The translations under genes and the position numbers were made by a program. The notes under the pieces were generated by a model. That model searched no databases, was not told the origin of the DNA, and was given only the letters and a program-made list of their open reading frames with translations. This document shows positions 10,533 to 43,337 of a stretch of 64,000 nt of DNA, piece by piece (position 1 is the stretch's first letter; the number at the start of each line of letters is the position of its first letter). The stretch is from an uncultured Dehalococcoidia bacterium (GTDB taxonomy: Bacteria; Chloroflexota; Dehalococcoidia; Lucifugimonadales; UBA3495), in the NCBI GenBank assembly GCA_951812625.1, contig CATOSP010000002.1, forward strand, positions 720,880-784,879, written 5' to 3'.

Positions 10533-10594
10533 CCGACTGCGGTCAAATCGGCAACGGTTGCCGAAATCGGAAACGAGTCTGAAGGGAGTCGAGC

Positions 10595-10936: not shown

Positions 10937-10969
10937 GGCAAGTGATTTGGCGATTTGGAGGAAAGCGAT

Positions 10970-12053: not shown

Positions 12054-12908
12054 ATGACCCTATCCGACGTTCAGGAACACATCAACGGGGCCAGCGAAGC
12101 GCCCCCTCCCAACGCAGGGGAGGCTGCGGCCCAGGGATACAGCCCCGACCGGGCGCACCCCCTGGACCTGCGGAGCGAGTCCCGCCCCGGCAGCCACGAC
12201 GCCTACATGGGCATGGTCCGGTCGATGGTTGACCGGGAGATGCGGACCCTGGGCAGCTACATCCAGGCCGGGCGGTACAGGCATCAGAGGCTGCGGTCCT
12301 TGGTCACCCGGCTGTACCACCTGTCCCTCTGGCAGATCACCGCCCCTGCGGGCCTTCTGAACCACCGGCGCACTGAGCTGATCCGGGAGCGCAGCGCCAT
12401 ACAGGAGTTGCTCAGGGGCTTCGGCAAGCCCCTGGACCCCGAGGACGTGAGGAAGCTGGACGAAGACCAGCGGGAAGAGCTGTACGGGACTTCCCTCTTC
12501 TACGGGGAGGAGACGCTGAAGCAGTTCACCGGCTCCGCCTGGCTGGTCCCTATGGGCCTTCGGGACGCCTACGACCGCCTCGATGAGATCACCGCACGGG
12601 TAAAGAACCTCACCGTCCAGATACAGGAGGCCCAGCGCAACGGCCACTACTGGGACGGCGGGCCGCTGATCGAATACTTCAGGACTCCCTACAAGGACCG
12701 GGGGGACATCGACCTGATGGCCATCGCTCCCCCCTTCCTCCTGAAGCTCCAGGCGTACATCGACGTATCCATATCCGAGGTCTGGCGGCACCAGGCGCAG
12801 CGGATCACATCGCAGAGCGCCGACGGCGACGAGGCCTCCGACGTTGAGCCTGAAGCTGAACCAGGGAAGAAGAAGCGCAGCCTGTTCGGAAGGATGAGAG
12901 GGAAATGA
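12054..12908 (+). CDS. hypothetical soluble protein (284 aa), first gene of operon B
   Basis: A strong RBS precedes ATG 12054; the ATG at 12033 would sit on the RBS itself. Charged, helical-looking sequence with a basic C-terminal tail (PGKKKRSLFGRMRGK). The stop overlaps the next start (ATGA 12905-12908). Confidence 0.65.
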   Translation: MTLSDVQEHINGASEAPPPNAGEAAAQGYSPDRAHPLDLRSESRPGSHDAYMGMVRSMVDREMRTLGSYIQAGRYRHQRLRSLVTRLYHLSLWQITAPAGLLNHRRTELIRERSAIQELLRGFGKPLDPEDVRKLDEDQREELYGTSLFYGEETLKQFTGSAWLVPMGLRDAYDRLDEITARVKNLTVQIQEAQRNGHYWDGGPLIEYFRTPYKDRGDIDLMAIAPPFLLKLQAYIDVSISEVWRHQAQRITSQSADGDEASDVEPEAEPGKKKRSLFGRMRGK

Positions 12909-13360
12909 GAAGCATAGGCATAGGGCGAGACCTTGTTAAGACGTCGGAGGAAGACGCCCCGGTGACCATTGAACACCAGGACGGCTACCTGGAGGTGATT
13001 CCCGACGCCAAGCGGGAGCTGGGGCTGATCACCCACGAGGAGAGCCGCCAGGTACTGCCGGAGCGGGACCGGGTGCCCCAGTACCGGCTGAGTCTGGACG
13101 GGGATTTCGCGGAGCTGGACGGGGAGGTTGACTACTACGACGACGAGTTGACCGACCCGATCTTCAACCCCAGCTTCGCATTCGGAGCCTCGCTCGCAGC
13201 CTACGAAGCTGCGGAACGGGGGGAGCTGGGAGAGCCGGAGAACGTCAAGGCCCACGCCAAAGTCCAGTGGATCGCGGCGGCTGGCGGGGTGGCCTTCCTG
13301 GGCCTCTCCGCCCTGGCGGGGCTGGCGGTGCTGGGCGTACTGCCCTGGCAGGGAGGTTAG
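12905..13360 (+). CDS. hypothetical tail-anchored membrane protein (151 aa)
   Basis: ATGA-coupled start. Acidic N-terminal part and a single C-terminal TM helix (IAAAGGVAFLGLSALAGLAVLGVL). Confidence 0.6.
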   Translation: MRSIGIGRDLVKTSEEDAPVTIEHQDGYLEVIPDAKRELGLITHEESRQVLPERDRVPQYRLSLDGDFAELDGEVDYYDDELTDPIFNPSFAFGASLAAYEAAERGELGEPENVKAHAKVQWIAAAGGVAFLGLSALAGLAVLGVLPWQGG

Positions 13361-13362
13361 GG

Positions 13363-15165
13363 ATGGTCAGCAGCGTTCTTGTTGCCCGCATCCTGGTGCT
13401 TCTGGGAGTCCTGGCCCTGCTGGGGGCCGGGGGCGGATACGTGGGGTACGAGGAACCCTGGGCCTTCGGACTCCGCCCAGGGAGTCCCGACGCCCGTTAC
13501 GGCCCCCTGGTCGGCGCTGTGGCGGGAATTTGCCTTGGCATCGCAGCCACGCTGGTCGTCGCGGTAGTGCGCCAGCGGCGTGGGCGTCCGGCCAAGACCG
13601 CACTCCAACCCATCGACTGGCAGGAACTACACGACCCGGCTGACTCCCATGCCTCCCCCGCCGTGGTCGTCTGCGAGATGTGCCGCGCCACATCCGATTG
13701 CGAATGCCCCCAGTGTGACGTATGCGGCCAGAAGGGAGACCCCGGCTGCTACGTCTCCGGCAACCGGGTCAATCATGGGCTGATGATGTCTCCTGAGCTG
13801 CTGGAGCGCAGGGCCAGTCTTCCGGGCGCGGTACTCATGTGTAGCCTTTGCCGCTCAAGACGGGGCTGCGAATGCCCCCGGTGTGACTTTTGCGGCCAGA
13901 AGGGAGACCCCGGCTGCTACGTCTCCGGCAACCGGATCAATCATGGGCTGATGCGCCAGCCTGAGCCGGAAGACGCCGCCATTCCAGTGCCCGTTCTTGC
14001 GTCGGCGGACTGGCTGGAACTGCACGACCCCGGCCTCCAGGCATCCCACGAGGAAGAACCGGCCGACGCTCCGGTCTCAAAGTGGGAGGAACCGTCGAAG
14101 CTGCAAAGGCTCCTGCAAGGGCCGCTGCCCGGCCCGCGCTCCGGGAACTTCATCGGCCCCCGGATGCCCATGACCCTGGAGATGGTCGCGCAGCGGGCGC
14201 AGAACGACGACCAGCCCCTGCGGGCCAAGAGCGGCGGCAGGCTCACCGCCACCGAGTACCCCGAGGTCCTGGAGCGGCAATGGCGGGAGTGGACCGAGAT
14301 GTTCGGAGACGGCGGCGGCGGCGGACATCTCTCCCGGCCCGTTGTCATTGCAGGGCTGGCGCTGGCGGCGCTGGTGCTGACCGGGCTGGGGTACGCCTTC
14401 GGACCCTTGGTCCTGGGAGGGTTCCAGGGAGGGGCCGTGGCCGGGGCCAAGACCACCTGGCAGACTCTCACGCCCTTCGCGGGCGCGTTTGGCGGCCTGC
14501 TGTTGTCCGCAATCGCCGCCTGGTTTGTCCTGGTCAAGAAGGGCGCGGGGAAGGATGAGAGCAAGGTTGGCTCCAAGTACGAACAGGTCTATGCCCCGGC
14601 GCGCATTACCCAGGTGAAGTATATCGACGATTCCGGGCGAGAGGTTGAAAAGGATGCGCCCGACGCCCGGCGCTACGTGGTCCGCAGGATGATTACCGAC
14701 CTGATGAGAGCGCCCTTCGCCCACCGGCAGGAGGGAATCTTCGTCAGCGGGGAGAAGATGTCCAAGGACCAGCTCTTCCGCCAGGGGGAGATACGGCTGG
14801 AGACCACCAAGGACCTCTCGAAGCTGACCAGGCCCGAGGAACTCTACGACGCCGGACCCCTGACCGGAAGGTGGCGCGGCGTCTCCAGCCTGCGCTGGTA
14901 CGTGGGCCTCCGCAACCCGATTGAAACGGGCATGGCGGCCAGGGAGTGGGAGATCGAGGGAGAGTCCAACGGGGGGGCCGGGCGTTTCTTCACCAGCAAC
15001 GCGGGCTTCCTGGCCCTGGTGATCGGCGTGATTGGCGGGATCATATTCTTCTTCGCAGCCCTGGACCACCGGGGGAACCTGGACCAGGAAGTCAGCGAGC
15101 TTATGGATCGGACTCCCAGGGCGGTGCAGGAAGCGCAGTCCCGGACCCCGCCCGGATCGAACTGA
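13363..15165 (+). CDS. polytopic membrane protein with duplicated 7-Cys (zinc-ribbon-like) cytoplasmic modules
   Basis: GGGAGG RBS 7 nt before ATG 13363; the listed start 13267 lies inside the upstream gene. TM helices are present at the N-terminus, middle and C-terminus. Two paralogous modules are CEMCRATSDCECPQCDVCGQKGDPGCYVSGNRVNHGLM and CSLCRSRRGCECPRCDFCGQKGDPGCYVSGNRINHGLM. Confidence 0.7.
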   Translation: MVSSVLVARILVLLGVLALLGAGGGYVGYEEPWAFGLRPGSPDARYGPLVGAVAGICLGIAATLVVAVVRQRRGRPAKTALQPIDWQELHDPADSHASPAVVVCEMCRATSDCECPQCDVCGQKGDPGCYVSGNRVNHGLMMSPELLERRASLPGAVLMCSLCRSRRGCECPRCDFCGQKGDPGCYVSGNRINHGLMRQPEPEDAAIPVPVLASADWLELHDPGLQASHEEEPADAPVSKWEEPSKLQRLLQGPLPGPRSGNFIGPRMPMTLEMVAQRAQNDDQPLRAKSGGRLTATEYPEVLERQWREWTEMFGDGGGGGHLSRPVVIAGLALAALVLTGLGYAFGPLVLGGFQGGAVAGAKTTWQTLTPFAGAFGGLLLSAIAAWFVLVKKGAGKDESKVGSKYEQVYAPARITQVKYIDDSGREVEKDAPDARRYVVRRMITDLMRAPFAHRQEGIFVSGEKMSKDQLFRQGEIRLETTKDLSKLTRPEELYDAGPLTGRWRGVSSLRWYVGLRNPIETGMAAREWEIEGESNGGAGRFFTSNAGFLALVIGVIGGIIFFFAALDHRGNLDQEVSELMDRTPRAVQEAQSRTPPGSN

Positions 15166-18100
15166 TGGCCATTAACAGACCATGCCGGCGTGGCCGCGGC
15201 AGCCGGATATGCACCCATTCCCGGCGCGGCCGCAGGAGTGGCAGCCGCGAAACAGGCCAGTTGGGAGATGAACGATTGCTGAAGCACAGAGACGGGGAGA
15301 GCGGATTCCCGGCCCTTTGGGACCTTCGCGGATACTGGGGGGCCTGCTTCGACCGGCCCCAGGCGGACTCCGACGGGGACGGCATCTCAGACCAGGCCGA
15401 GGAATACTACGCCGACAACCCGGAGGAGTTCGAGGAGCTTCAGGACTGGCTTGAGGATATGGGTGTCGATCCCTACCCCGACGACGCCATCGGCGACAAC
15501 AGCGACGACGACAGCGACGGGGAGTCGCCTGCGTTCAATGAGCTGATGGGCCTGGCCGCAGGCTCCAACCGGCCGTCCAGCGGGGCAAGGCCGCGAGGCC
15601 AGCACCTGGGCGACCCGCGCCACGACCAGGACCACCCCGACTACGACGAAGAGCAAGACCCCGGCAGCGACGACTTCAACCCTGGCTCCTTGAACCCGCA
15701 GGAACAGGAGTCGCTGACCCTGGAGCAGATGCGCCAGGACCTCAGCCTGCTGACCGGCCAGGGACAACCCCCTGCCGGACAACAGGACCAGCCCAAGACC
15801 TACGATGAGGCCCTACAGGCGTCCTCTGACGCGAATATGGCCTACAACGAGGGATTGGCGTCGGGCGCGTCCCCAGAGGAGATGGCCAGGCTGGAGGCGG
15901 AACGGGACGCTGCGCAACAGGCTTTTAGTTCTGCCGCAGAACGGAACAGGCGATTGGGGCGCAGTTCCGCCCCCCGGCACCTCGGCGATCCCCGGATTGA
16001 GGAAGACCACCCTGACAACCTTCCATCGGAAGAGACCACGGAGGGCCTCTGGGCCGAGGCCCTGGATGTATTGACCGGGGCATCCCCTACCCCCCGGACT
16101 GCTGCCCCCCTGATTGGGCAACATCTCGGCGATCCCAGGACAGACCCCTCGCACCCCGGGTACACGGGCTTCCAGGACCCTGCCAGCCCCGGCTACGACC
16201 GCTCGGAGCTGGACCCAGGCGACGCGGTGGGCCTCTACTGGCACCGGCAGGACACTGACCCCGAGGAGGCCACATCCCAGCAGCGATGGGAGGCATGGCA
16301 GATCGAGCGGGAGGCGGTCGAGCGGCTCCTGGACCCGGAGAACCTTCCGGAAGACCCGGAGGAGCTGCGCCGCTACTACACGGAACGGGTTCAACCCCAC
16401 GTCGAGGCCGCTATCGGGAGGCACGGAGACCTGAGTTTCGAGTCCACCGAGGGAAAGACCTTCGACGCCGGGGAACAGCTTCGCGGCGCGGTGGACTACC
16501 ATGTCGCATCTCTTGACACCAGGCAGCACAACGAGGCCATCGCCGATCAGTTGGAGATTCCCGGTTACGAAGATATGTCCGACCGCGAGCTGGCGGACGC
16601 GATCCAGGACAGCACCATCAGCACGGCACAGGGCCAGGGCTTCACCTTCGTAAACAACCCTGGGGCCGGGTCAAGGTACGACCAGGCGGCGCGGTATCTC
16701 CAGCAGCAGAGATACCAGGGCGAACAGGACACGATCAACGCGGCCCTGGGCAGCGGATGGGACCGGGCGCTGGGAACGCCCACCTATGAGCAGGCGGTGG
16801 ACTTCCTGGAGGGCCAGAACCAGTACATTGAACGGCACAATGAGCAGGTCCAGGCCCAAAATCTTGCCCTCGCCATTGAACACGGCTACGTTCCGGACGG
16901 CCCGGACCGCACTCCAGTCACGCCCTATGAGTACCTCCAGCAGTTGCAGGCGGAGTCCCGTGCAGCCGGGACTCGCGCCGAGGAAGGAGCCCTGGAGGAC
17001 CTGGCCGTGACCGCCGCCGGAAATCTGGACTTCACCGAGACCGGCAGCCTTGAAGAGCAGGGCAACATCGCCGCCTACAACAGTTACTTTGTGCGGTTGA
17101 CGGGGCATGAACCTACCGGCGACCCGGACGCGGATACGGCCCTGATAGCCGCAGCAGTAACCAGGGGCGAGACCGGGGCGCTTGAAGACCAGGGCAACAT
17201 CGCCGCCTACAACCGATGGTTCCAGGACTTCACCGACGGACAACTTCCCACCGGCATCGGTTACCTGGACGAAGCGGCGATCAGGGCAGCGGCGGGGCGG
17301 CGACTCGACCGGGACAGGAGCATCGCGGGAGACGAGGAAAGCGGCATTGGCGTCGGAACGCTGGAGAGCCTGCTGGCCCGGTTCGATACTATGCAGCGCC
17401 AACAGGAGCTCGACGAGGGCATAGAGGGAGACGAGGAAAGCGGCATTGGGGCCGGAACGCTGGAGAGGCTCAGACAGAGGGCTTTCCTCGGGGGCCTGGG
17501 CGGGGAAGACGACCTCGCCGCCGAGGAGTCCGCCCAGGTGCGCGATTCATGGGAGAGGGAATGGGAGAGCGTTGGCATAGCTGCCCCTCCCCATCCCTCG
17601 GACTACACCAGCGCGGACGAATACCGGCACGACCTGGAGATATGGAAGGAACGCCAGGAGAACCGCGCTCTGATTAACCCCGGTCTGGAACAAGGACTGG
17701 ACAACCTGGCGCTGCACGAGGCGGGGTTGCAGCAGGCCCTTGCCGACAACGAGGCGATTGCCCAGCTCTTCCACAATGAACTGGCGGACTCCAGGTATTT
17801 CATCCCCGATGACGCCAGGACTCATGCCGACGACATGACCGGGCTTTCCCCCGGCCAACTGGAGAAGGCCACCCAGATAGCTGCCGGGGAAACCCTGTCC
17901 CCCGTGGTGGTGGGCCACGTCGTTCTGGACCCGATGCAGTCCTTCGACCGGGAATCCTATGAGCAGGCCGTCTTGATGGCCAGAAGCGACCCGGAACTGG
18001 ACCAGCAGGTCAGAGAGTACGCCCAGGGCTACGGCCTGTACCGCCTGGAGCTTCCCGAATCCGAGATGAACGCACGGCGACTCCGGCTGCTGGAGGTCCT

Positions 18101-21100
18101 GTCATACGGCGCTCCCATTCCAGCCCTCGGATTGGGGAAGGTCGCGGGACTGGCCGCAAGGCCGCTGGCCAGAGCGACGGGTCCAGCCATAACCCGGATC
18201 GGCACTTCCGCCCTGAAGCTGGTGCGACCTGGGGCCAGGGCCGTCCCTCCGGCCATGAACGTCGCGGACGATGCAGCCGCGACCCTGGCGCAGAACGTGG
18301 GAGAATTTACCAGGCTGCTGGACGCCGGAAAAACCCGCCAGGCCCGCCGCTTTATGCAGAAGCGCCCCGATTTCCAGAAATGGGCCGTGCAGGGCGGGCT
18401 GGACCCCGCCGACATTGAGAAGGCCGGGATCGCGTCCTACCTGAAGGACGTGGCCAGGCCCAACGTGCTGCAACGCGCCCTGGGCAACACCGCCTTCAAT
18501 GTCGCGGCGCATACCGGGAGGTCGGCAACCGTAGGCTCTGGACTCAGCGGTACGATCTCGACCGGCCTCGCGGCAGCTCCCTTCGGCGGGGAGGGCTGGG
18601 GTCAGATCAGCCCCGACGAAAGGAAAGGAATCCTTGACGCCCTGTGGCAAGGTGCCATCGGGGGAGGCACTGGATATGGTGCCTTGCGCGGCGTCAACAG
18701 GCTCAGGCGCGGCGCGGGGAAACCGGCTTTGGGCCGCTTCCGGCAGTACGGGCTGTCCGCAGCCGAGGGCGCGAGTACCGACACCGGCCTTGCCCTGGTC
18801 CCCGGATTCCAGGATCCCACGTTTGGACGCATAACGGGGGACGAACAACTGGGGATCGCCCTGTCCACGGTGGCAGACCCGGCTTTCGACGCCGCCAGGG
18901 GCATTATAGGCATTGTCCGCCACCCCAAGAGCCTGCTGCCCGGAACCGTCTCGGCCAAGGGGTTGCAGGGCGGCACTCAGAAGCTCCACTACTCCCAGGT
19001 GTCAGCCGGTGACGATGTGGAGCTGCGCGAGGTCACGTCCCTTGCCGACGATGGCATCACTCCGATTGCCACTCTCCAGCCGGAGAGCAGAATCCGCCTG
19101 GAGATAGACCGCAGGCTGGCGGTCCATCCCCAGCGCATCAGGCCGGGGGATGAATCGGGTCTGGCCTACGACCAGATACTCAGCTCCGGCCTTGACCCGG
19201 TAAGCGGCCTGAAGCTCAAGGAAGACATACTGGACGCTATGGCCAGGGGGGAAACGGACTTCCGTGGCGTGACTCCCAGCGGCATACCGTACCGCTTCAC
19301 GCTGCCAGCCGCCTACAGGACAGGGGTATTCGACCCCGGCGCGGCGGCGCACCTGTCACCGGACGCTTCATTTGCGGTCCTGGCCAAGGGAGAAGACCCG
19401 GGGGCCACCTTCGCCACGCGCAGCACCAACCCCAACTCGGTAGAGGAAGTGCTGTACTTCCAGCCGGGAGCGATGGCGCTGCGGTACTTCGGCGGGTCGG
19501 CCAGCGGCAACACCGGGGCTGACGCCACCAGGGAATCGTATCGGGAGACTATAGCCGGGTTCGCGGGCCTCCCCAACTTCGCCCGGAGAGCCATCGGCTT
19601 GCAACCCGTACAACCCGCAGCCCTGGTGCTGACTCCGGCAGAGGTGGAGGGTCTGACCGCCCGCAACGTCGTCGAGGACGGCCCGGACGAACTGCCGTCC
19701 AAGTCCTTCCCCGGCGCGGCTGAAACGGGAGGACGAGACCCGCTGCCCCAGGAAGTCTTCGGCAGACAGGGGGCCGAGGCCGAGGTCGTCATATCTCCGG
19801 GAGGGGACCTGGACAAGCGCAGACTCTCGACCCACATCCTTGGGGGAGGGCCGACCGCCGTTAATCCCGAATTGGCCGATCCCAGCTTCCGGGATGTATG
19901 GCGCACCAACCTGGTGAGCCTGTCTGATGCGCTTCCATTCGGCACCAGCATCGGTCTGCGCCTGGACAAATCGCCGGAGCAACTGGCCAAGGCCCGCGAG
20001 TTCTTCGAGAACAGCGGGGTAAGGCGCAGTACAGAGAACGATGGACGGTTTGAGGTTGACGCCGTGGTGGACGGCGCAAGGTACCGGGTACGCACCGACG
20101 ACGACCCTTCCAGGATGCTGGAGAGCGTCAGAAGCGGTCAGGGCGGCGATGTAACCAACGTGGTCATCCGCGACACCGAGACCGGGCGGGTGGAGCAGGT
20201 GAGCGCCCCGGACACCGCCGATGTGGACATAGGCACTACCCGCGCACCACGAGACGGCGACGGCTCTCTACGCACCAGGCAAGAACCCGGTGCAGACCCG
20301 GATACTACGCGAGTCAGACCCGATACGGCGAGGATAGCTAACGCCAGGGCAGACCGGGTTGACGCCGACCGCCTGGACACCGACAGGGTTGAGCGGGTTG
20401 ACACCGATCGCCTGGACACCGCCAGGGCAGACCGGGTTGATACCGACCGCCTGGACACCGCCAGGGTTGAGCGGGTTGACACCGACCGCCTGGACACCGC
20501 CAGGGCAGACCGGGTTGACGCCGAGCGTGTGGACACCGCCAGGGCAGACCGGGTTGATACCGACCGCCTGGACACCGCCAGGGCAGACCGGGTTGATACC
20601 GACCGCCTGGACACCGCCAGGGCAGACCGGGTTGAAACCGAGCGCCTCGACACCGCCAGGGCAGACCGGGTTGATACCGACCGCCTGGACACCGCCAGGG
20701 CAGACCGGGTTGACGCCGAGCGTGTGGACACCGCCAGGGCAGACCGGGTTGACGCCGAGCGCCTCGACACCGCCAGGGCAGACCGGGTTGAAACCGAGCG
20801 TGTGGACACGCCACGGACAGACCGGCCCAAGCCTGAGCGCATCCAGCGCCCTCCGGGGAAGACTCCCAGGCAACCCGGACGTGGCCGCACTACGCGGGAC
20901 GACCCCGGCAAGCCTCGGATTCGTCTACGCCTCGGTGGGCAAGGAGGCGAGGACAAAGCGGAGCAAAGGCCTCCGCACCTGAAGTATCCCAAGGTGGTGC
21001 GATTCCAAACCGTAGAAGATGTTGTAGTGGACCTGGAGACCGGGGACACGACGCGGACCCCGGTAGGCGACCTCCCGTCACAGACCCTTGAGGTCGTCAA

Positions 21101-21479: not shown

Positions 21480-21500
21480 GCTGAAACTCTAGGAGGAATC

Positions 21501-24500: not shown

Positions 24501-27500
24501 CAGCACATCCAGGGGCTGGCGGAGAGCCAGTCCGGGTCTTATGCGGGCCGGGGCGGTGTCGTGTTCGCCGCCAGGCCGAGCGACTTTGCCGACAACGGGG
24601 TGGTGTTCGCCACCGGGACGCCCATATCCAACACCATTGCCGAAGCCTGGACCATGATGCGCTATCTCCAACTGCCGGAGCTGAGGCGGCAGGGACTCCA
24701 GCACTTCGACGCCTGGGCCAAGACCTACGGCAAGATCACAATGGGGATGGAGCAGACCCCCCAGGGCAAGTACCGGAACACCCAGCGGTTCGCCAAGTTT
24801 GTGAACCTGCCGGAGTTGTCCCGGCTCTTCCAGAACGTGGCCGATGTGCGGGTGGCGTCCGAAGTCCCGGAGATGGTCGCCGTGCGCCCCCGCCTCGTAG
24901 ACGCCAGGGGAAACCCGAAACGGACCGGCATCAAGGCCCCCAACTACCCATTCCTGGAAGCCTACATGGAGCATCTGCGGGACCGGGTTGACAAACTGCC
25001 CGAAAAGCAGCCGGAAGAGGACAATATGCTGCTCATATCCAGCGACGCACGCAAAGCGTCCCTGGATATTCGGATGGTCTGGCCCGAAGCCGAACCCAAC
25101 CCCAACGGCAAGGTGCAGCTTGCCGCGTCGAAGATCGCGGAGATTCACAAGGCCGAGGAAGCCGACAAGGGAACGCAGTTGGTCTTCCTGGACCTGGGAA
25201 CGCCCAAGGCCAGCGACAAGCCGAAGGAAGGCGACGACGATTCTGAGGAAGAAGGCGGCGAGGGCCTGACCGCAGAGGAGTCGAAGATCGTCAACAACGT
25301 CTACGGCATCCTGAAACGGGAGCTGGTGAGGCGGGGCGTTCCCGAGAAGGACATCGCCTTTGTCCAGGACCACAAGACCAGGGATGCCAGGAAAAAGCTC
25401 TTCGATAATGTCCGCTCCGGCGATGTGCGGGTCCTGATCGGCTCGACCGAGACGGTCGGCGTAGGGGTCAACGTGCAGGACCGGGCGGCGGCGCTGCACC
25501 ACCTGGACGTTCCCTGGAGACCACGGGACATAGAGCAGCGGGAAGGTCGGATAATCCGCCAGGGCAACAAGGTCTACGGCCCCAGGATCGAGGAAGAGAC
25601 CGGCGAGGTCGTCAACCCTGGGCGCGGGGTGCAAATCTACCAGTACGTCCAGGAAGGCAGCTTCGACGAATTTATGTGGCAGGCGGTGGAGGTCAAGGGG
25701 CAGGCGGTCAAGGCCCTGATGAAGCGGAACATCACCGCCCGGTCTATGGACGATGCCGACCCCCTGGTGTTGAGCGCGGCTGAGGCCAAGGCGCTGGCCA
25801 GCGGCAACCCTATGGTGCTCCGGGCGGAACAGATCAAGAACCAGATCAATACGCTGCGCCTGGAACGCGCCGCCCACAGGAACCAGCAGGAGAACGCCAG
25901 AGGGCAGATCAGGCGGCTGGAAACGATGATTGAGGCTCACCGGGAGCGGCTTCCCATTCTGGAGGTTGACGCCCAACACGCCCTGGAAAACGACGGCGAG
26001 GACAAGCTGAGGGTGAGCGGCCAGCCCATTGAGAAGCGGGCCGATGCGGGGAAAGCAATCGAGACCCGGTTGTCCCGGCTGAACGTGGGCGATGTGACCG
26101 GGATCGGCACGTACAAGGGTTTCGACGTAAGCGCGGCCAACAGCGACCGGGGCTATCAGCTTGCCGTGACCAACCCGGCCACAAAGATTCCCTACAGCTC
26201 CGCCTACATCGAGGAAGTCAATCCCGCTGGCCTGATGTCCCGGCTGGACAACCTGGTAAACGGCATACCCAGGTCCCTGGAAAGCTCCAGGGACCTGTTG
26301 AATCAGCACGAAACATCCCTGGAACTCTACCGGGAACAGGCCGGCAAGCCGTTTGAAGGGACGCCGGAGTTGGCCAAGAAGGAACGCCACCTGGCCTACG
26401 TCCAGGCCCTCCTGAGCGATGCCAAGGACGCCGTGCGTCCGCCGGACTTCGACGAAGACCCGTCCGGGACGGTCGAATACGACACGCCGGAACTGGAAGC
26501 GGAGACGGCTGCGCCAGGCCCGGCAGCAACCCAGCCGGGACCGGAGACGGTTGCCGTCGCGGAAGCCCCGGTTGCCGGACCTTCCCCGGTCGATGATGCC
26601 CCGGCGCAGCCGGAGACGGCGGCGGTCGCGGCAGACGTGGCCACACCAGAGCCAGAGGCGGTTGCTGAACCTTCCCCGGTCGATGATGCACCGGCAGAGC
26701 CGGAGACGGCGGCGGTCGCGGCAGACGTGGCCACACCAGAGCCAGAGGCGGTTGCTGAACCTTCCCCGGTCGATGATGCACCGGCAGAGCCGGAGACGGC
26801 GGCGGCCGCGGAGGCGGTAGCCCAGCAGGAACCGGAGACCGTTGCTGAACCTTCCCCGGTCGATGATTACCCCGCAGAACCGGAGACGGCGGCAGTCGCG
26901 GAGGCGGTAGCCCAGCAGGAACCGGAGACGGTTGCTGAACCTTCCCCGGTCGATGATTACCCCGCGCAGCCGGAGACGGCGGCGGTCGCGGAAGATGCGC
27001 CCGCGCGAAGTCAGGAAAACACGGCCCCCTATATCCCGCCCTACGACCCAGCCATTGACGATGCGCCGGTCAGCCCGGAGCAGGAAGAAGCGGAACGGCT
27101 GGCCAGGGACACACGGCTCGCAGCCATGCGTGAGGAGAAGCGGGCCAATAACGAGCAACTAAAGGAATGGGCGCTGGGAAAGCTGGCCCAGGGACAGGAT
27201 TTGCTTTTCCAGACCGAAGGGATTGGGCCGGCCGTGATTCTCAGGGCCAAGGTGGTTGCGGATTGGCAGTCGAAAGGGCATCAACCGATCCTGGTGGGTT
27301 CGGAGGGGAATCTGCGTATCCTCGGTGGCCAAAGGCAGGGCCGTCCCAAGTACGACACGGTTTTGTCCGGGGGGATCGTGTCCGGCGATGGGCAACACAT
27401 GATTATCAACAAACCCATGCCGGAAACCCCTGAACCTTCCGGGGAGGTTGCCGAGCCAACCCCGATTGAGGAAGCCAAGGTTCAGACGGAGACGGCGGCG

Positions 27501-29156
27501 GTCGCGGAAGACGTGGCCACACCGGAATCAGAGGCCGTAACTGAACCTTCCCCGGTCCAGGATTACCCCGCAGAGCCGGAGACGGCGGCGGTCGCGGCAG
27601 ACGACGCCCAAGTTGAGCCGGTGACGGAACGACCACCTAGCGTAGAGCCTGAAAAGAAGCAGTCCAGCGTGATGGGGCTGCATATAACGCGGAACCCCGA
27701 CGGCACCTGGGGTTTTGCCGGTTCGATTCCCGATGAGTTGGCTTTCCGGCAGTATGACGGGTCTCCGCTTACAGAAGAACAAGCTGCAAGCGTGCAAGAA
27801 ACCTCACCTCTCAGTGTTCCCGGAGTGCGTATTGCCAAGTTCGAGACGGAAGCGGAAGCACTGGCCGCTGCCAGTGACGCGGGTTATGCGGAGGTATGGC
27901 GCAGCGGGGACATAGTATCAACCACGCCAGATACTCCACCGCCCTCCGAGAGACAGTTGGGCAAACTACCTCCGGCAAGCCTGACTGAGGAACAGAAGCT
28001 CGCCTTCTATCGCGGGGATATATACCCGGTCGTAACGCCCAGACGGGGAGACCCCGACGCTGTCGTGATGGACCCAGCAGATGAATCCTGGCTGGAAGCC
28101 GTCAGCCTCAAATACAAGGGGGTTCTGGATCGGCCCGACTCCAAATCGGTAGATGTCGGTAGGGCTCTGTCCTGGTTCCACAGGGCGGGAATTGACCATA
28201 GCGAGATTCCCAGCTACCAAGACCATGCCCCTTCAGAAGTGGAGAAAGATGCCCGTACTCAAGACGAAAGGCGGGAATCCCCGGAACCAACCGAGTCCGA
28301 GACCGAAGAACTGGTTGAGCAGGTAATGGCGGTCAAGGACGATGGGCATATCAGCCCGGAAGAGGCCGAGGACACCGCCAGCGCAGCGGGCAAGCTGTTG
28401 CAGAAGGCCGAGGAAGAAACCCCTGACCCGCCCAGCGTCACCCGGACGTATGAGAACGCCAGGGAACTCGATGCCCTGCTTGAAGAGCTGTGCGACGACC
28501 CCGAAGAACTGGCCGCGCTCCGGGAAAGAGTTGCCCAGGCCCAGGCCCGCTCCGAACATCAGGCGCGGGCCAAGGGAGAGGAACCCGACGAAGTACCGGC
28601 TGAAGTCCGCCGTGTCGCTGGCGAGATTCTCGCCGCCAAGGAACAGGCCACACCGGACGGACCGAAGGAGAAGGGCAGACCTCGCCGGGTGCGGGAAGAA
28701 GATGCGGAACTCCTGGCACGGGTAGAGGAGGAATGCGACGAAGACACCCTGGCACAGGGGCAAGAGCAAGCCGATGGGCAGAACGGCAAAGCCCCTCTGC
28801 CCATGAGGAAGCCGAAGGCCCGGACCGGCGGCGACGAGAGCAAGGACCGGGAACAGGACCAGGACAAAGAACCTGTACCTGTGCTGGCCAAGAAGCCGAT
28901 AACGCCCATCAAGGAACGCTGCCCGGAGGAACGGGAGAACATCCGCAAGGAGCTACAGCGAGAAATAGCCGTGGCTGATGCGTCTGCCGAGACCGCTGAA
29001 AGGCGTAGGCGCGTCAAGGGCCATAAGGGGAGCGTGGGCATTGTCTCTCCAGCTCCAGGCCCCGGACGCATCGGCGGCAAGGTCAAGAGGACCAGGTACG
29101 GCAACCGTACCACGGCAGACCGCTTCATGCGGACCCGCAAGGTCAAGTCGCGCTGA
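21501..29156 (+). CDS. giant 'polyvalent' protein: N-terminal N6-adenine DNA methyltransferase fused to SF2 (SNF2/DEAD-like) helicase, long repeat-rich C-terminal extension
   Basis: AGGAGG RBS at 21491-21496. MTase motif I VLEPSAGSGRF (~21873-21905) and motif IV SNVPFG (22071-22088). Helicase motif I GFGKTA (23891-23908), motif II DEAD (24393-24404), motif III-like FATGTPISN, and motif VI QREGRIIRQGN (25536-25568). E/P/A-rich 30-aa repeats follow. The C-terminus ends GNRTTADRFMRTRKVKSR. Confidence 0.92.
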   Translation: MPDYVATGTELPQTAIARWDANIDAIRVLKRLQAEGRAATPEEQKVLAKYSGFGDSAYEQAFAYYQRDSAWKKRKEELEELVTPEEHDAIKRSRLNAFYTTPEVIRSMWSGLRDLGADKLPRPKVLEPSAGSGRFLAYQPRDMAASSERTAVELDNLTAGLLKGQFPDATVYNVGFEAAPVPDGHFDIAVSNVPFGNYGVHDPEYLAEGKNYLTGSIHNYFFAKSMDKLRPGGVLAFITTHHTMDAPKARKVREYLADKADLVGAVRLPEDAFPDTEVVTDIIYLRKRAPGEPPGDRTWVSTQPLEVPDARGGTHTHSVNSYYLQNPDMVLGRQTAEGTMYAGQSYTVKHDPDSAPVPDKLAAATSRVSASPLKLDPATAAAPSSGQRRSRAAGHQETVNVWAERVEAETGDTERPRRLAELANTTRRLLNAEKGRIDDDPEQIRAELNSQYQDYVDAHKRLNHKSNRDLLKGMVDESLLMALENHDPDTKKWERSSIFSRRLARDNPERHVTNAADAMSVVLNESGALDFERMGQLLGQDASAVRNSLAKDRLIFRNPMGSWETANEYLTGRVRDKLEVARRVAGNNPAFQVNVAALEQVQPEPVPASDIETPLGAPWIPDDVVNDWVKQNLASSRFGQPDRWFRYNPESGEWGYNKKVSGYEAVMRSQWGTEGMAADKILEAVLKGTPISVTMPNPDGEGRVRDPAATEAAQQKARQMQDSFSEWIWQDADREERLVKRYNELHNSTRPRVFDGSHLTFPGMSPKWAERMRQRQHQMDASFRVVSDGTALLAHEVGFGKTAVMISSAMERQRLGLIDKPVFVVPKATHEQFASDFREMYPGATLLAPSPSEFSKKNREAFLNRAATGDWDGVVLTTNQFQSIPVKPETEARWVEAQIADLEAALSAANEENETSRESQTQKQIQKKLEREQKRLKDLRAQISAGADKGVVYFEDLGIDQLYVDEADQYKNLPFATKMGQVKGLPNSESKRAWDMFLKTQHIQGLAESQSGSYAGRGGVVFAARPSDFADNGVVFATGTPISNTIAEAWTMMRYLQLPELRRQGLQHFDAWAKTYGKITMGMEQTPQGKYRNTQRFAKFVNLPELSRLFQNVADVRVASEVPEMVAVRPRLVDARGNPKRTGIKAPNYPFLEAYMEHLRDRVDKLPEKQPEEDNMLLISSDARKASLDIRMVWPEAEPNPNGKVQLAASKIAEIHKAEEADKGTQLVFLDLGTPKASDKPKEGDDDSEEEGGEGLTAEESKIVNNVYGILKRELVRRGVPEKDIAFVQDHKTRDARKKLFDNVRSGDVRVLIGSTETVGVGVNVQDRAAALHHLDVPWRPRDIEQREGRIIRQGNKVYGPRIEEETGEVVNPGRGVQIYQYVQEGSFDEFMWQAVEVKGQAVKALMKRNITARSMDDADPLVLSAAEAKALASGNPMVLRAEQIKNQINTLRLERAAHRNQQENARGQIRRLETMIEAHRERLPILEVDAQHALENDGEDKLRVSGQPIEKRADAGKAIETRLSRLNVGDVTGIGTYKGFDVSAANSDRGYQLAVTNPATKIPYSSAYIEEVNPAGLMSRLDNLVNGIPRSLESSRDLLNQHETSLELYREQAGKPFEGTPELAKKERHLAYVQALLSDAKDAVRPPDFDEDPSGTVEYDTPELEAETAAPGPAATQPGPETVAVAEAPVAGPSPVDDAPAQPETAAVAADVATPEPEAVAEPSPVDDAPAEPETAAVAADVATPEPEAVAEPSPVDDAPAEPETAAAAEAVAQQEPETVAEPSPVDDYPAEPETAAVAEAVAQQEPETVAEPSPVDDYPAQPETAAVAEDAPARSQENTAPYIPPYDPAIDDAPVSPEQEEAERLARDTRLAAMREEKRANNEQLKEWALGKLAQGQDLLFQTEGIGPAVILRAKVVADWQSKGHQPILVGSEGNLRILGGQRQGRPKYDTVLSGGIVSGDGQHMIINKPMPETPEPSGEVAEPTPIEEAKVQTETAAVAEDVATPESEAVTEPSPVQDYPAEPETAAVAADDAQVEPVTERPPSVEPEKKQSSVMGLHITRNPDGTWGFAGSIPDELAFRQYDGSPLTEEQAASVQETSPLSVPGVRIAKFETEAEALAAASDAGYAEVWRSGDIVSTTPDTPPPSERQLGKLPPASLTEEQKLAFYRGDIYPVVTPRRGDPDAVVMDPADESWLEAVSLKYKGVLDRPDSKSVDVGRALSWFHRAGIDHSEIPSYQDHAPSEVEKDARTQDERRESPEPTESETEELVEQVMAVKDDGHISPEEAEDTASAAGKLLQKAEEETPDPPSVTRTYENARELDALLEELCDDPEELAALRERVAQAQARSEHQARAKGEEPDEVPAEVRRVAGEILAAKEQATPDGPKEKGRPRRVREEDAELLARVEEECDEDTLAQGQEQADGQNGKAPLPMRKPKARTGGDESKDREQDQDKEPVPVLAKKPITPIKERCPEERENIRKELQREIAVADASAETAERRRRVKGHKGSVGIVSPAPGPGRIGGKVKRTRYGNRTTADRFMRTRKVKSR
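26577..27000 (+). repeat. ~5 tandem copies of a 90-bp unit (30-aa EPSPVDDAPAEPETAAVAADVATPEPEAVA repeat) in the polyvalent protein
   Basis: The string gaaccttccccggtcgatgat recurs at 26667, 26757, 26847 and 26937 (exact 90-bp period), with a first variant copy at ~26577. A diverged extra copy lies at ~27540-27600. Confidence 0.9.
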
Positions 29157-29169
29157 ATTGGAGGACAGG

Positions 29170-29742
29170 ATGAACAAGACGAACGCGCTCAAACAGAAGC
29201 AGTACGAGAAACCGCCGGGCATGGCTATAGACCCGGCCGATAGCTGCACCGCAACCATCGAGACCAGTCTTGGCGATATGGTGTTGCAGCTCTGGCCCGT
29301 GACGGCCCCCGTCACGGTCAACAACTTCGTCTTCCTGGCCAGGGACGGGTTCTACGACGACAGTTGCTTTCACCGGGTAATCCGGGGATTCATGGTCCAG
29401 GGCGGCTGTCCTGAGAGGACAGGACGGGGAGGGCCTGGCTACAGCTTTCAGGACGAACCCGTAACCCAGCCCTACACCAAGGGAGTGCTGGCTATGGCCA
29501 ACTCCGGTCCCAACACCAACGGAAGCCAGTTCTTCATCGTCCACGCGCCGGAGGTGGAGCTGCCGCCCAAGTACAGCATCTTCGGGAACCTGGTCTCCGG
29601 GGAAGATGTGCTGGACGCCCTGGCCGGATCGCCGGTCACCGCAGGGGCCGGAGGGGAGAGGTCCAGGCCCACGGACTGGCTGGTGATCCGCACGGTCAGA
29701 ATCTCGGAATCTGGGGAAACGGCGGAAGCGCCGGAGGAGTAG
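29170..29742 (+). CDS. cyclophilin-type peptidyl-prolyl cis-trans isomerase
   Basis: GGAGGA RBS before ATG 29170; the listed start 28978 lies inside the upstream gene. Cyclophilin signatures are present: FHRVIRGFMVQGGCP and GVLAMANSGPNTNGSQFFIV. Confidence 0.92.
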   Translation: MNKTNALKQKQYEKPPGMAIDPADSCTATIETSLGDMVLQLWPVTAPVTVNNFVFLARDGFYDDSCFHRVIRGFMVQGGCPERTGRGGPGYSFQDEPVTQPYTKGVLAMANSGPNTNGSQFFIVHAPEVELPPKYSIFGNLVSGEDVLDALAGSPVTAGAGGERSRPTDWLVIRTVRISESGETAEAPEE

Positions 29743-29745
29743 CCC

Positions 29746-31056
29746 ATGCCCGTCTTGGCCGTAACCCCCGACATACTCCGCCAGGGGAGGCAGGACCTGG
29801 ACGCCGCCTTTGGCATTACCGGCACGGCGGACGTGCGCTACGGCCCGCCCCAGCCGCCCCTGGAGGAACTGCACGGCAACACCTTCACCCCCGACATGGT
29901 CGGGGATATGGGGAAGGACCCCTTTGACGACGACGATTTCTCAATCGACCAGCGAGTGAAGGCAGCCCAATACCTGCTGGCCTGCTACGACGCCAACCGG
30001 GAGAGGCCGGTGTACCCGCCGATCTGGTTCACCCCCGGCCTGTATATCCTGTCCGGCGACGTGGGAGACGGCAAGACTCTGACCGCCGTTTCCGTGGCCG
30101 TCAAGTTTATGATGTGCGGCTGGCCCGCCTACTCCGCCAACGGCGGTCTCCTGTTCGGCAAGATGCTGGAGGATGCCCAGGTCTACGCCTTCCCGGAGTT
30201 CCTGTCCCGTGGCAGCGTCTGTGTGGCGGATGAAATACACGCCATCTACGGGCGCTATGAGGGCCAGACCGTCCGGGGCCGGACGATGGCCCAGGCCACC
30301 GCATCCTTCCGCAAGGAACGAATCTACGCCTTCGGCGCGACGGCCAGGGAACACCTGTTGGGACAGGACCTGAAGGCGGCGGTCAGGGGCGTTGGCTACC
30401 CCTTCCGCACCTATCCCAATGGAAAGCCCATTGCGCCGCCCTGGGCCTACCGGGGCATAAGCTGGTACTACCCCGACCCCTGGCGCGGCACACAGTACCG
30501 GGAAATCCACGACAAGGAAGAAAGCCACCGCGAGCCCTGCCGGAAGTACGTCGCTGAACTTCATGCTTACGACCTCTACACCGCCGCCAAGCACTACAAC
30601 TCCTGGGAGAAGATCACCCTGGACTTCGGCGGCAAGCTGGGGGCCGGTAAGTTCCGGGACGCGATCTCCGGAGACGGGGAGAGTGGTGAAACCGAGGGAG
30701 ACCGCCCGCGAACTCCCTGGGCTTCTTCGCGGCGCGGGCCTAGCGATGAAGCCGTCGGGCTGACGGTCTTGAGCTGGTACGAGGATGGCCACTTCAACGC
30801 GGAGGTCGAGGCGTACAACAGCGCCATCAGCGCAGCCCGCACCACCGAAAGGGGCGATATGCTCATATCCCTGAAGGACCTCGCCGAGCGGTTCACCCAT
30901 ACTACCGGGGTCAAGACCACTGTTGCCCGGATGAAGCGGGGGCTTGACGCTGCCGGGATCGAGTATTCGTACCGCAGCTTGAACGTGGAAGCCCTGGAAA
31001 CGGCGCTCAGGGACAGGGAGCAGACCCTACAGGACAGCTTCGCAGGCGGTGAGTGA
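29746..31056 (+). CDS. P-loop NTPase (Walker A/B), possibly Zot/pI-like; function unknown
   Basis: Begins 3 nt after the PPIase stop. Walker A GDVGDGKT (30055-30078) and Walker B VCVADEIH (Asp-Glu at 30229-30234). No TM helix. The remainder is unrecognised. Confidence 0.7.
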   Translation: MPVLAVTPDILRQGRQDLDAAFGITGTADVRYGPPQPPLEELHGNTFTPDMVGDMGKDPFDDDDFSIDQRVKAAQYLLACYDANRERPVYPPIWFTPGLYILSGDVGDGKTLTAVSVAVKFMMCGWPAYSANGGLLFGKMLEDAQVYAFPEFLSRGSVCVADEIHAIYGRYEGQTVRGRTMAQATASFRKERIYAFGATAREHLLGQDLKAAVRGVGYPFRTYPNGKPIAPPWAYRGISWYYPDPWRGTQYREIHDKEESHREPCRKYVAELHAYDLYTAAKHYNSWEKITLDFGGKLGAGKFRDAISGDGESGETEGDRPRTPWASSRRGPSDEAVGLTVLSWYEDGHFNAEVEAYNSAISAARTTERGDMLISLKDLAERFTHTTGVKTTVARMKRGLDAAGIEYSYRSLNVEALETALRDREQTLQDSFAGGE

Positions 31057-31057
31057 G

Positions 31058-31228
31058 ATGCGGTGCGGCAGGTGCGACAAGGTGGTCCCGAAAACGGTAA
31101 ACTTCTGTGCCTACTGCGGGGAAGAAACCAGGAGGAGGGTTAGGCCCGATGAAACGCTGCCCCAGGTGCAAGCTCTGGCTCACCGTCCGGGAAGTCTCCA
31201 TTCACCAGTCACTCGGCTGCAAGGCTAA
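31058..31228 (+). CDS. small zinc-ribbon protein (56 aa), tentative
   Basis: ATG lies 1 nt after the upstream stop. MRCGRCDKVVPKTVNFCAYCGEE carries a CxxC-x11-CxxC motif. It is below the ORF-track length cut-off. An overlapping alternative mini-ORF 31149..31250 (MKRCPRCKLW...) also exists. Confidence 0.35.
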   Translation: MRCGRCDKVVPKTVNFCAYCGEETRRRVRPDETLPQVQALAHRPGSLHSPVTRLQG

Positions 31229-34389: not shown

Positions 34390-34390
34390 G

Positions 34391-37691: not shown

Positions 37692-37746
37692 GTCCGAACC
37701 TAGGTCGAGAATGAATATGTCCGAGAACTCCGTGGCGGCGACTTTT

Positions 37747-43305: not shown

Positions 43306-43337
43306 CCAGCCCGGTCGTATCCAGGGTGTTTTAATTG

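Follow-up and report, generated by a model that had tools for sequence, protein, structure and literature searches.

Polyvalent proteins have been described from two contexts, phages with portal-terminase packaging and elements that have a type IV secretion system (T4SS), as well as from a third group without a telling context (Iyer et al. 2017, PMC5512222). The methylase-helicase dyad is the third most common module of these proteins, and its archetype, DarB of phage P1, is a component of the virion head that protects the incoming DNA in cis (PMC5512222). Here we describe a mobile element in a 64,000-nt stretch of contig CATOSP010000002.1 from an uncultured Dehalococcoidia bacterium; this whole stretch is called the window below. 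The element encodes two giant proteins that share a C-terminal tail, one of which is almost certainly a DarB-like methylase-helicase. It differs from the described hosts of polyvalent proteins in that the scanned window and relatives contain neither portal-terminase packaging nor a T4SS.

The second system to which the element can be compared is the group of IME1 (DmV) elements of Dehalococcoides and Dehalogenimonas (Nesbo et al., bioRxiv 10.64898/2026.09.15.751708, 18 September 2026). IME1 elements measure 21-28 kb, occur in integrated and in episomal form, and have a GC content of 44-52%. They insert downstream of a tRNA or pseudo-tRNA, and their first coding sequence (CDS) encodes a tyrosine recombinase belonging to the XerCD family. 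A large CDS, possibly with a metallophosphoesterase domain, stands beside a pI-like ATPase, after which come five transmembrane (TM) proteins. The remaining genes include a repressor on the opposite strand, further proteins with TM segments or signal peptides that carry CARDB (HOG09) or PEP-CTERM domains, a resolvase, a bifunctional primase-helicase and a terminal Cro/C1 repressor. These elements, first interpreted as satellites or phage-inducible chromosomal islands (PICIs), are reported to dominate viromes and to be strongly enriched in virus-size fractions; the authors put forward a reading as dsDNA viruses that bud, probably have a filamentous form and are confined to Chloroflexota (10.64898/2026.09.15.751708).

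The element occupies the window from position 1 to ~32 kb, and the block that we studied, positions 12054-31228, is its distal half. Open reading frames (ORFs) and junctions were read straight from the sequence, and TM helices were taken from a hydropathy scan. The block holds eight ORFs, all on the + strand, of 284, 151, 600, 2104, 2551, 190, 436 and 56 aa, with spacings of -4 (ATGA), +2, -1 (TGATG), +21 (AGGAGG), +13 (GGAGGA), +3 and +1 nt between consecutive ORFs, and no terminator-like site was found on the + strand within it. An earlier note on this DNA had described the block as an operon of nine translationally coupled genes behind an AT-rich gap. The junctions, gene sizes and gene features that it listed are all present on re-reading the sequence, the gap lies at 11911-12053, and the hydropathy scan agrees with its soluble 284-aa protein (0 TM), its tail-anchored protein (1 C-terminal TM) and its polytopic protein (5 TM). 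The ORF count does not hold: a ninth gene is reached only if the candidate at 31293-32078, a 261-aa membrane protein with a TTG start, is included, and this gene lies past the end of the block after a 64-nt gap. The block is not self-contained either. It is the tail end of an element of ~31-34 kb whose array begins before base 1 of the window, and the genes 5' of the block are likewise mostly overlapping and on the same strand (upstream gaps of +24, -10, -4 and -4).

Relatives were located with the 436-aa P-loop nucleoside triphosphatase (NTPase) of the block. A search of 5.8 billion proteins gives only 27 clusters of its homologs; each derives from metagenome assemblies, and one is also at NCBI. 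A scan of 185,579 species genomes returned two relatives, both in metagenome-assembled genomes (MAGs) of Dehalococcoidia, OZ250155.1 (a 5.1-Mb chromosome) and CBDBGS010000007.1. We fetched eleven loci around NTPase homologs (L0xx in the following; L014 and L001 together are OZ250155.1). Every window protein was compared by tblastn with six of them (L001, L002 and L004-L007), and the others were covered through their called genes and a second, smaller tblastn search. Counterparts exist for nearly all genes of window 1-31 kb and lie together in the corresponding neighbourhood of relatives, and synteny of the neighbouring genes is seen in L001, L002, L005-L007, L009-L011 and L014. Neither of the two findings that the earlier note had named as refuting it was made: the genes are syntenic across the fetched relatives, and no classical phage structural or conjugation genes that would account for the components were found in the scanned window ORFs or the relatives' called genes.

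In OZ250155.1 the gene order is that of the window, over ~25 kb in all. Its minus strand carries a resolvase, a 142-aa gene and an integrase-like gene of 252 aa, and the array on the plus strand starts with a 288-aa TM protein and proteins of 385, 441 (cadherin), 809, 127, 106, 115 and 207 aa, continuing with 299, 153 and 611 aa, a 1496-aa giant, 67 aa, a 1926-aa giant and the NTPase. L002 and L007 have the same genes in rearranged modules: the giant, the NTPase, then TM proteins of ~300, 76, 200, 636-662, 127 and 413-430 aa, the last of which carries cadherin/Big_9 domains and is followed, on the opposite strand, by a 6-TM gene; genes of 280-286, 152-153 and 370-396 aa and a peptidyl-prolyl isomerase (PPIase) close the array. 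Phage_integrase genes of 183-210 aa stand at the edges of L002, L005, L001 and L011, and in L002 two of them, ~20 kb apart, bracket the gene set; L014 has the integrase-like 252-aa gene and the resolvase. A tRNA-Met adjoins the end of L010, and no tRNA is within reach in the ten other loci. A search of L002 for attachment sites gave no convincing flanking direct repeat. Two contigs of ~21 kb, considered as circular episomes, proved to be linear, of low coverage and integrated.

Because the two relatives sit in chromosomes of Dehalococcoidia MAGs beside integrase or resolvase genes, we are confident that the gene set is an integrated mobile element. No tyrosine recombinase was seen in window 1-33 kb. 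Because GC content drops after ~33 kb and the sequence 3' of this point contains a Type ISP enzyme in split form, a serine recombinase that is truncated and a piece of a transposase, the right end is placed near 32-33 kb; the left end lies upstream of the window.

The last 86 residues of the two window giants are 44% identical (E = 3e-15), and the two proteins show no other similarity; the tail-tagged giants of the earlier note are thereby borne out. The extreme C-termini of the giants in the relatives are also basic and clade-specific, and in four elements a pair of large proteins from one element has a common ending (endings in Table 1). The bodies ahead of these endings vary by element. They are of no recognised kind in the window, L001 and L007, and contain NUDIX domains in L002, L006 and L011; other large proteins are a second DarB-like giant of >2451 aa in L006 and a 567-aa DEAD helicase in L010. 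That clade-specific tails sit on interchangeable giant bodies is in our judgement well founded. Since unrelated bodies bear the same clade-specific ending, we argue that the ending would be a functional tag, read by a co-evolving partner.

The 2104-aa giant had been taken for an orphan. However, its residues 890-2076 are 61% identical to a 1926-aa protein of a Dehalococcoidia MAG. It has no family match in Pfam, PHROG, NCBIfam, PADLOC or PDB sequences; a lysostaphin match in the PDB-sequence search reflects the repeat region and was discarded. A C-terminal domain of ~120 aa (residues 1901-2020, with QHYTGRITDV.TD..G.P) recurs in the giant upstream of the NTPase in L001, L002, L005, L007, L009, L010 and L011, and the 39-bp tandem array precedes it in the window and L002. 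A homolog search with the 170-aa C-terminal module returned nothing, probably owing to a word-index limit; the module was traced by tblastn in the fetched loci. The upstream giants of L014 (13301-17791) and L009 (1-4717) end in a YRG...STS...ETEVV pattern resembling that of R-S-E ADP-ribosyltransferases (ART-like), which Pfam and PDB-sequence searches did not confirm and which we do not use as evidence. In L002 a 133-nt piece of the NTPase gene is duplicated with 97% identity (3145-3277 versus 10494-10626) inside the 139-aa zinc-ribbon ORF upstream of the giant. This duplication reflects recent recombination in which both ends of the giant-NTPase module took part.

From its sequence, the 2551-aa protein is almost certainly a polyvalent protein of the DarB-like type, with an adenine methylase and an SNF2 helicase. 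It matches PHROG 10089, "DarB-like antirestriction", with 1396 bits over residues 16-1647, and Pfam finds N6_Mtase and Eco57I, then ResIII, SNF2 (SNF2-rel_dom) and Helicase_C. In tblastn it matches 141 phage records, VvAW1, PEp14 and LASTA among them, with ~35% identity over 1620-1640 residues; the VvAW1 homolog, of 3640 aa, is encoded beside DNA-ejection genes. An EcoKI/TaqI-like N6-adenine methyltransferase (MTase) is thus joined to the N-terminal side of an SNF2-type SF2 helicase, as defines the dyad. Aligned with VvAW1, the protein has MTase motif I (VLEPSAGSG) in intact form, and its helicase motifs (GFGKT, DEAD, QREGRIIR) are complete as well. No NCBIfam model, the PLxRFG model included, is matched at its cut-off. 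The gene had been presented as part of a candidate undescribed module, but a DarB-like dyad is a well-known type (PMC5512222). The protein shares with P1 DarB and its kin the domain order, homology over ~1630 residues and the character of a giant multi-module protein of a mobile element that adjoins other giants with unrelated payloads. It differs in a 900-aa C-terminal extension that ends in the tail common to the neighbouring giant and in motif IV of the MTase, which reads NVPF.

The NTPase is, we are fairly sure, Zot/AAA-like and the only recognisable ATPase of the element. Its AlphaFold2 (AF2) model, built from a 22-sequence alignment, has a pLDDT of 76.7. Among fold matches in the PDB, Foldseek ranks Neisseria Zot first (N-terminal domain, 2r2a; E = 4.7e-6, target TM-score 0.55), ahead of RecA, FlaH, Vps4, phi8 P4 and RuvB. 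FtsK is absent from the best 50 fold matches. In BFVD the best named matches are Zot proteins of Inoviridae (target TM-score 0.55-0.60), and ORF3 of the Acholeplasma plasmavirus L2 is matched as well (E = 9e-6). Plasmavirus L2 is an enveloped, budding phage of a wall-less host (PMC6356626). The similarity of the modelled N-terminal domain to the Zot fold is moderate, and an hhalign comparison of the NTPase family with L2 ORF3 aligned only the stretch from Walker A to Walker B, at a probability of <1%. In Pfam the window protein reaches only AAA (0.0056) and LdpA_C, both below cut-offs.

A profile search among 1.84 billion representatives yields 207 relatives of the wider NTPase family, 126 of them at E <= 1e-10. 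The majority are soluble, measure ~350-450 aa and combine Walker A with a Walker B of the form hhhhDE[IVAL]H, and unlike canonical inovirus pI only 7 of 149 representatives have a predicted TM segment. In a scan of 92 distant members, Pfam Zot is matched by 10 (best 1.8e-7), PHROG 197, "Zot-like toxin", by 14 (best 1.5e-9) and Pfam AAA by 45. Judging by model and profiles, the NTPase is a P-loop enzyme between the Zot/pI-like and the classical AAA families, for which "Zot-like" is the best structural label. With inovirus pI/Zot and L2 ORF3, its best structural matches, it shares the arrangement of Walker A and an hhhhDExH Walker B (LILDEFH in L2 ORF3) and the position of sole ATPase in a capsid-less element rich in membrane proteins. 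It differs from inovirus pI/Zot in the lack of a direct profile match and of a TM segment, in an extra conserved N-terminal region of 95 aa and in a helical C-terminal domain of ~100 aa. One member of the wider family carries an intein (Hom_end_hint and LAGLIDADG_3). Scans of three sub-families of the wider ATPase group returned two distant IMG/VR contigs with ~200-aa ATPases, which are uninformative.

The Pfam and PHROGs scans covered the window's large ORFs (8 + 9 + 10), NCBIfam and PADLOC were applied to the nine ORFs of 12054-32078, and precomputed Pfam results were used for the called genes of the relatives. Neither the scanned window ORFs nor the called genes of the relatives gave a match to a capsid, portal, terminase, relaxase, VirB4, VirD4, FtsK-like or replication protein. 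The absence of phage and T4SS signatures noted earlier therefore stands for the scanned large ORFs, as does the misfit to a textbook phage or T4SS layout, since neither the window nor the relatives contain a textbook gene that would account for the set. Specifically, a tailed prophage finds no structural match in Pfam or PHROG (HK97 capsid, portal, large terminase), at the sequence level only, and neither a T4SS nor a conjugation system of the actinomycete type (VirB4, VirD4 and relaxase, or FtsK-like TraB) has a match in the window. All candidate structural proteins of the element carry TM segments. Among the scanned proteins of the element, TM segments are found in all except the giants, the PPIase, the NTPase, the 284-aa protein and the zinc-ribbon protein; the hydropathy scan gives zero TM helices for the first four of these groups.

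This composition resembles that described for IME1. Both are integrated in the same host class, both come with a tyrosine recombinase and a resolvase (seen here in relatives), and both lack the hallmark genes of tailed phages. In both, a large CDS stands beside a pI-like ATPase, in company with a run of proteins with TM segments or signal peptides that bear adhesion domains (CARDB there, cadherin/Big_9 here), and in some members of both one gene of the module lies on the opposite strand. A giant or a fragment of one (501-2271 aa) is found directly upstream of the NTPase, or one small gene away, in L001, L002, L006, L007, L009 and L011; the PPIase gene alone stands between the two in the window and L005, and the 567-aa DEAD helicase does so in L010. 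In L002 and L007 the six TM proteins follow the NTPase as in IME1, whereas in the window clade they precede the giants. The element also differs from IME1 in its GC content (61-73%) and its size (at least 31 kb), in that the ATPase of the window clade ends the array and does not stand ahead of the membrane-protein genes, and in its giants: no metallophosphoesterase domain was found in those beside the NTPase, and DarB-like polyvalent giants with shared C-terminal tags are described here only, as far as the available text of the preprint allows the comparison. In that text methyltransferases have 0 occurrences, and polyvalent proteins, shared tails, the trio of 284-, 151- and 600-aa proteins and a cyclophilin go unmentioned (10.64898/2026.09.15.751708). 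The candidate reading as an undescribed module is thus partly upheld. Polyvalent giants with clade-specific tails in an element without capsid or T4SS are new, but an architecturally matching class, IME1, has already been described.

We consider the locus as an integrated, capsid-less, virus-like mobile element of a Dehalococcoidia-type host that belongs to the same architectural class as IME1, a reading for which we find the case evenly poised. The element would leave the cell without a capsid, budding or extruding through the membrane in a particle made of its own membrane proteins; our opinion on this exit by budding or extrusion is divided about equally. The ATPase would power loading or extrusion. 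The giants would travel with the DNA, recruited through their C-terminal tag by an element-specific partner, either the ATPase or a structural protein. We lean somewhat towards the view that the giants are co-delivered cargo, and hold more tentatively, with slightly less than an even chance, that the tail is a loading tag read by the ATPase or a structural partner. After entry, the DarB-like protein might methylate or shield the incoming DNA against restriction, and the other giants might take on further early or anti-defence tasks. The 284-, 151- and 600-aa proteins might form, together with the cyclophilin, a membrane-associated assembly sub-module on the cytosolic face, an assignment that we regard as rather doubtful. 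It is similarly unlikely, if worth stating, that the elements represent a distinct capsid-less, membrane-based lineage of dsDNA viruses or particles of soil Dehalococcoidia that load multi-hundred-kDa polyvalent anti-defence enzymes via short clade-specific C-terminal tags read by a Zot/AAA-like ATPase.

Several observations weigh against this reading. All contigs of relatives that we examined are linear and integrated, with no particle, episome or excision junction observed, and no relatives of the NTPase family were found in IMG/VR or in JGI metagenomes. The likeness to IME1, on which the proposal that the element may work like an IME1-type element relies, is one of architecture by description. 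The primase-helicase and the terminal Cro/C1 (helix-turn-helix) repressor of IME1 are absent from the Pfam results for the window and the 10-kb flanks of the relatives. The window contains no tRNA, the flank that serves as an IME1 criterion, but the left end of the element lies outside it. The window NTPase matches neither Pfam Zot (PF05707) nor PHROG 197, has no PHROG match at all and, by hydropathy, lacks the TM segment of canonical pI. The wider-family profile matches the AAA domains of Cdc48, VCP and Vps4 in the PDB at 1e-8, and a protein-translocase reading is therefore equally open. The methylase activity of the DarB-like protein is uncertain, and may be altered or lost, because its motif IV is NVPF (22074-22085, residues 192-195), where VvAW1 has the canonical NPPF. 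The upstream giants of L014 and L009 do not have the tail borne by the NTPase-proximal giant of the same element, and it could be that the tails are no more than basic ends which bind DNA or membranes and have diverged by descent. Finally, the PPIase is not universal among the relatives.

The alternative that fares best is contact-dependent, conjugation-like transfer without a T4SS, in a host that would be monoderm or have only an S-layer. Membrane and adhesin proteins would form a mating junction, and the NTPase, acting as an AAA translocase, would engage the basic tails and push the giants, with or without DNA, into the recipient. Substrates of T4SSs, among them VirE2 and VirF of Agrobacterium and relaxases, carry positively charged C-terminal translocation signals, which the coupling proteins of these systems recognise. 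The tails of the giants are alike in being short basic C-termini on otherwise unrelated large proteins that would accompany transferred DNA, and they are basic and clade-specific as a secretion signal would be. They differ from T4SS signals in that the window has no T4SS or coupling protein, that the tails are longer (~86 aa in the window clade) and that a conserved globular domain lies ahead of the tail in most giants. The AAA matches of the NTPase family, the large cadherin/Ig adhesins, the absence of capsid genes and the fact that ~40% of polyvalent proteins are encoded by conjugative elements (PMC5512222) all suit such a transfer. Relaxase, VirB4, VirD4 and FtsK/TraB-like proteins, however, were not found in the window or its relatives, the best fold matches of the NTPase are viral Zot/pI proteins, and the architecturally similar IME1 is reported to be strongly enriched in virus-size fractions. 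We consider this explanation improbable, at perhaps a fifth of our belief, and it nevertheless ranks first among the alternatives.

Less probable still is a satellite or otherwise defective element that has no particle of its own, depends on a helper tailed phage and supplies anti-defence cargo and surface proteins. DarB-like proteins are typical cargo of tailed-phage capsids, structural hallmark genes are absent, and IME1 too was first read as satellites or PICIs. Several relatives look decayed: in L005, the closest long relative (NTPase 75% identical), the giant gene at 3510-9458 is broken into ORFs of 92, 374, 103, 929 and 303 aa, by which this copy appears to be decaying, and transposases adjoin the NTPase in L001. 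Yet a core of ~12 membrane- or assembly-type genes plus the ATPase is kept under selection, with NTPases 45-75% identical; no capsid-redirecting, small-terminase or cos/pac-type genes were seen; and a tailed-phage capsid would not explain clade-specific C-terminal tags. A non-mobile chromosomal defence or cell-surface island, with a methylase-helicase like those of DISARM, BREX or MADS among ordinary envelope proteins, is very improbable: large cadherin, CARDB and LRR surface proteins do occur outside the element as well, but the PADLOC/NCBIfam matches of the 2551-aa protein to DrmD, mad2, BrxH and ZorD, on which a DISARM, BREX, MADS or Zorya assignment was considered and rejected, reach only 17-51 bits, against NCBIfam cut-offs of 610-1500 and the 1396 bits of the DarB-like PHROG, no partner genes of known defence systems are present, and the gene set moves as a unit, flanked by recombinases, between chromosomal contexts.

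Table 1. Features of the window and shared C-terminal endings of giants (positions are those of the window; loci of relatives as in the text).
Position	Strand	Feature	Details or basis
2..700	+	last 232 aa of a membrane protein of ~290 aa that the window edge truncates	frame-2 translation aligns with relatives
799..10083	+	membrane/surface-protein module	Pfam and TM scan
10143..11910	+	four small membrane proteins of 129, 113, 111 and 207 aa (last with 6 TM)	TM scan, relatives
11911..12053	+	AT-rich intergenic gap	box AATTTTATC(A/T)GA; candidate internal promoter/operator
12054..12908	+	284-aa soluble helical protein	basic C-terminal end KKRSLFGRMRGK
12905..13360	+	151-aa tail-anchored protein	cytosolic part acidic; one TM helix at the C-terminus
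13363..15165	+	600-aa polytopic membrane protein	5 TM; conserved core 14008-15150
13672-13749 and 13840-13917	+	two 7-Cys modules of the 600-aa protein	Cx2Cx6CxCx2Cx2Cx7C
15165..21479	+	2104-aa giant	acidic repeat-rich N-terminal half; conserved region 17832-21392
20342-20825	+	2104-aa giant: tandem repeat	39 bp x 12.4
20865-21224	+	2104-aa giant: family-wide C-terminal domain	
21216-21476	+	2104-aa giant: basic tail	
21501..29156	+	2551-aa polyvalent protein	DarB-like MTase-SNF2 helicase dyad 21546-26441
21765-22373	+	2551-aa protein: MTase	
23817-25760	+	2551-aa protein: helicase	
26569-26992	+	2551-aa protein: PE/PA-rich repeat	90 bp
28890-29153	+	2551-aa protein: shared tail	
29170..29742	+	cyclophilin-type PPIase, 190 aa	Pfam Pro_isomerase
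29746..31056	+	436-aa soluble P-loop NTPase	Zot/pI-like or AAA-like core; helical C-terminal domain
30055-30078	+	NTPase: Walker A	GDVGDGKT
30217-30240	+	NTPase: Walker B	VADEIH (DEIH)
31058..31228	+	56-aa zinc-ribbon protein	Zn_ribbon profiles, E ~1e-4
31293..32078	+	261-aa protein, 3 TM, TTG start	TM scan
34869-35256		tandem repeat, 123 bp x 3.2, 99% identical, in ORF 34382-35536	41-aa unit nearly perfectly repeated
36363-39351	-	Type ISP restriction-modification remnant, two ORFs	coupler and MTase, 534 aa; specificity domain, 442 aa; nuclease and helicase parts missing
41965-43305	+	large serine recombinase	without the first ~57 positions of the Resolvase domain (catalytic-serine region)
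43090-44023	-	transposase-like fragments	beside the serine recombinase, opposite strand
44409-48185	-	large surface protein outside the element	1258 aa; 8 CARDB
55136-58237	-	large surface protein outside the element	1033 aa; LRR and cadherin
58392-63896	-	large surface protein outside the element	1834 aa; cadherin/fn3
		shared ending, window (both giants) and L005	RTTADRFMRTRK[LV]K
		shared ending, L006 and L011 (both giants)	..[KR]KHG[LPV]R
		shared ending, L010 (giant and helicase) and L008	H[SF]PG[SA]RGVPR
		shared ending, L001 and L009	GMTALER[TI]RL[KR]NFAPR
		shared ending, L002 and L007	M..V..RR.G.L

The smaller proteins of the block are conserved to different degrees. The 284-aa protein has 17 homolog clusters with 54 invariant columns and a conserved basic motif at the C-terminus of the family, KKRS[LM][LF]GR.., and zero matches in Pfam, PHROG, NCBIfam and PADLOC. 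Its AF2 model from the 17-sequence alignment has a pLDDT of 52.8, and Foldseek found no PDB match better than E = 0.3. The 151-aa protein is 43-66% identical in L005, L002 and L007, where its gene always comes right after the homolog of the 284-aa gene. The two 7-Cys modules reported for the 600-aa protein are real: they occupy residues 104-129 and 160-185 and are kept in the 611-aa protein of L014, and they are missing in L005, L002 and L007. Profiles of the 284-aa, 600-aa and 902-aa (see below) families returned only noise against PDB sequences.

The PPIase (PF00160, E = 5e-39, residues 28-174) is an ordinary cyclophilin without a signal peptide, present in L005, L002 and L007 and absent from L001/L014. 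Its interpretation as a dedicated foldase, and that of the membrane proteins as a delivery apparatus, is still conjecture. The N-terminus of the 56-aa zinc-ribbon protein matches the start of 138/139-aa genes upstream of the giants in L002 and L007. The 261-aa gene, with no homolog in the fetched loci, is probably the last gene of the element. The box in the AT-rich gap, at 11.99-12.00 kb, is conserved in alignments of L005 and L014, and because it is so despite diverged flanking sequence, it may plausibly be an internal promoter; a sigma-70 scan of 11911-12053 found no consensus promoter.

The genes upstream of the block encode membrane and surface proteins. The frame-2 product of 2..700 aligns to L014 2395-3261, L007 11560-12468, L002 11406-12347 and L006 11373-12257, and judging from these alignments its gene belongs to the same element, beyond the studied block; the listed 251-aa ORF at 19-774 is a wrong-frame artefact of high GC, the true gene being in frame 2 (2-700). 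The module at 799..10083 encodes a 392-aa protein with an N-terminal TM, cadherin/Big_9 proteins of 327 and 1476 aa (in Pfam, Big_9 and, at 3e-106, Cadherin) and a type I membrane protein of 902 aa with an N-terminal and a C-terminal TM, and homologs stand in the same order in L007, L002 and L014. Across the element, the type I membrane proteins bear cadherin, Big_9 or fn3-like domains. An apparent gap of 511 nt (10084-10594) is filled by a conserved gene for a 129-aa membrane protein (10143-10532, +) that is absent from the ORF list and sits inside a longer ORF with a GTG start (9135-10532). Its product is conserved in L014, L007 and L002; all copies end in AQAVGRFF.., that of the window in AQAVGRFFGR. 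The 207-aa 6-TM protein is 56-75% identical in L005, L002 and L007.

To the right of the element, the region 41965-44023 looks like a decayed junction zone. The nearly perfect repetition of the 41-aa unit in the tandem repeat at 34869-35256 suggests a recent expansion. The host is itself rich in the adhesion domains that the element uses, as the very large CARDB, LRR, cadherin and fn3 proteins outside the element indicate.

The two best-defined components of the element already have known relatives: the methylase-helicase does, and the ATPase is most like known assembly ATPases. New is the combination, polyvalent anti-defence giants with clade-specific tails in an element without capsid or T4SS, and so is their interpretation as co-delivered, tagged cargo. 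Polyvalent proteins such as DarB are thought to enter hosts in two ways only, in the heads of tailed phages or by type IV secretion, and this element has neither. If the tag does direct loading, it would define a new bacterial protein-delivery route, a third beside tailed-phage capsids and type IV secretion. It would also offer a testable function for the unexplained large CDS of the newly proposed IME1-type viruses and supply a portable tag of natural origin by which proteins of very large size could be loaded into membrane particles, with a modular cargo in which the body is swapped and the tag is kept. The finding also widens the range of IME1-like elements beyond organohalide respirers of low GC and small genome, to soil Dehalococcoidia of high GC whose genomes are larger, one host MAG chromosome measuring 5.1 Mb.

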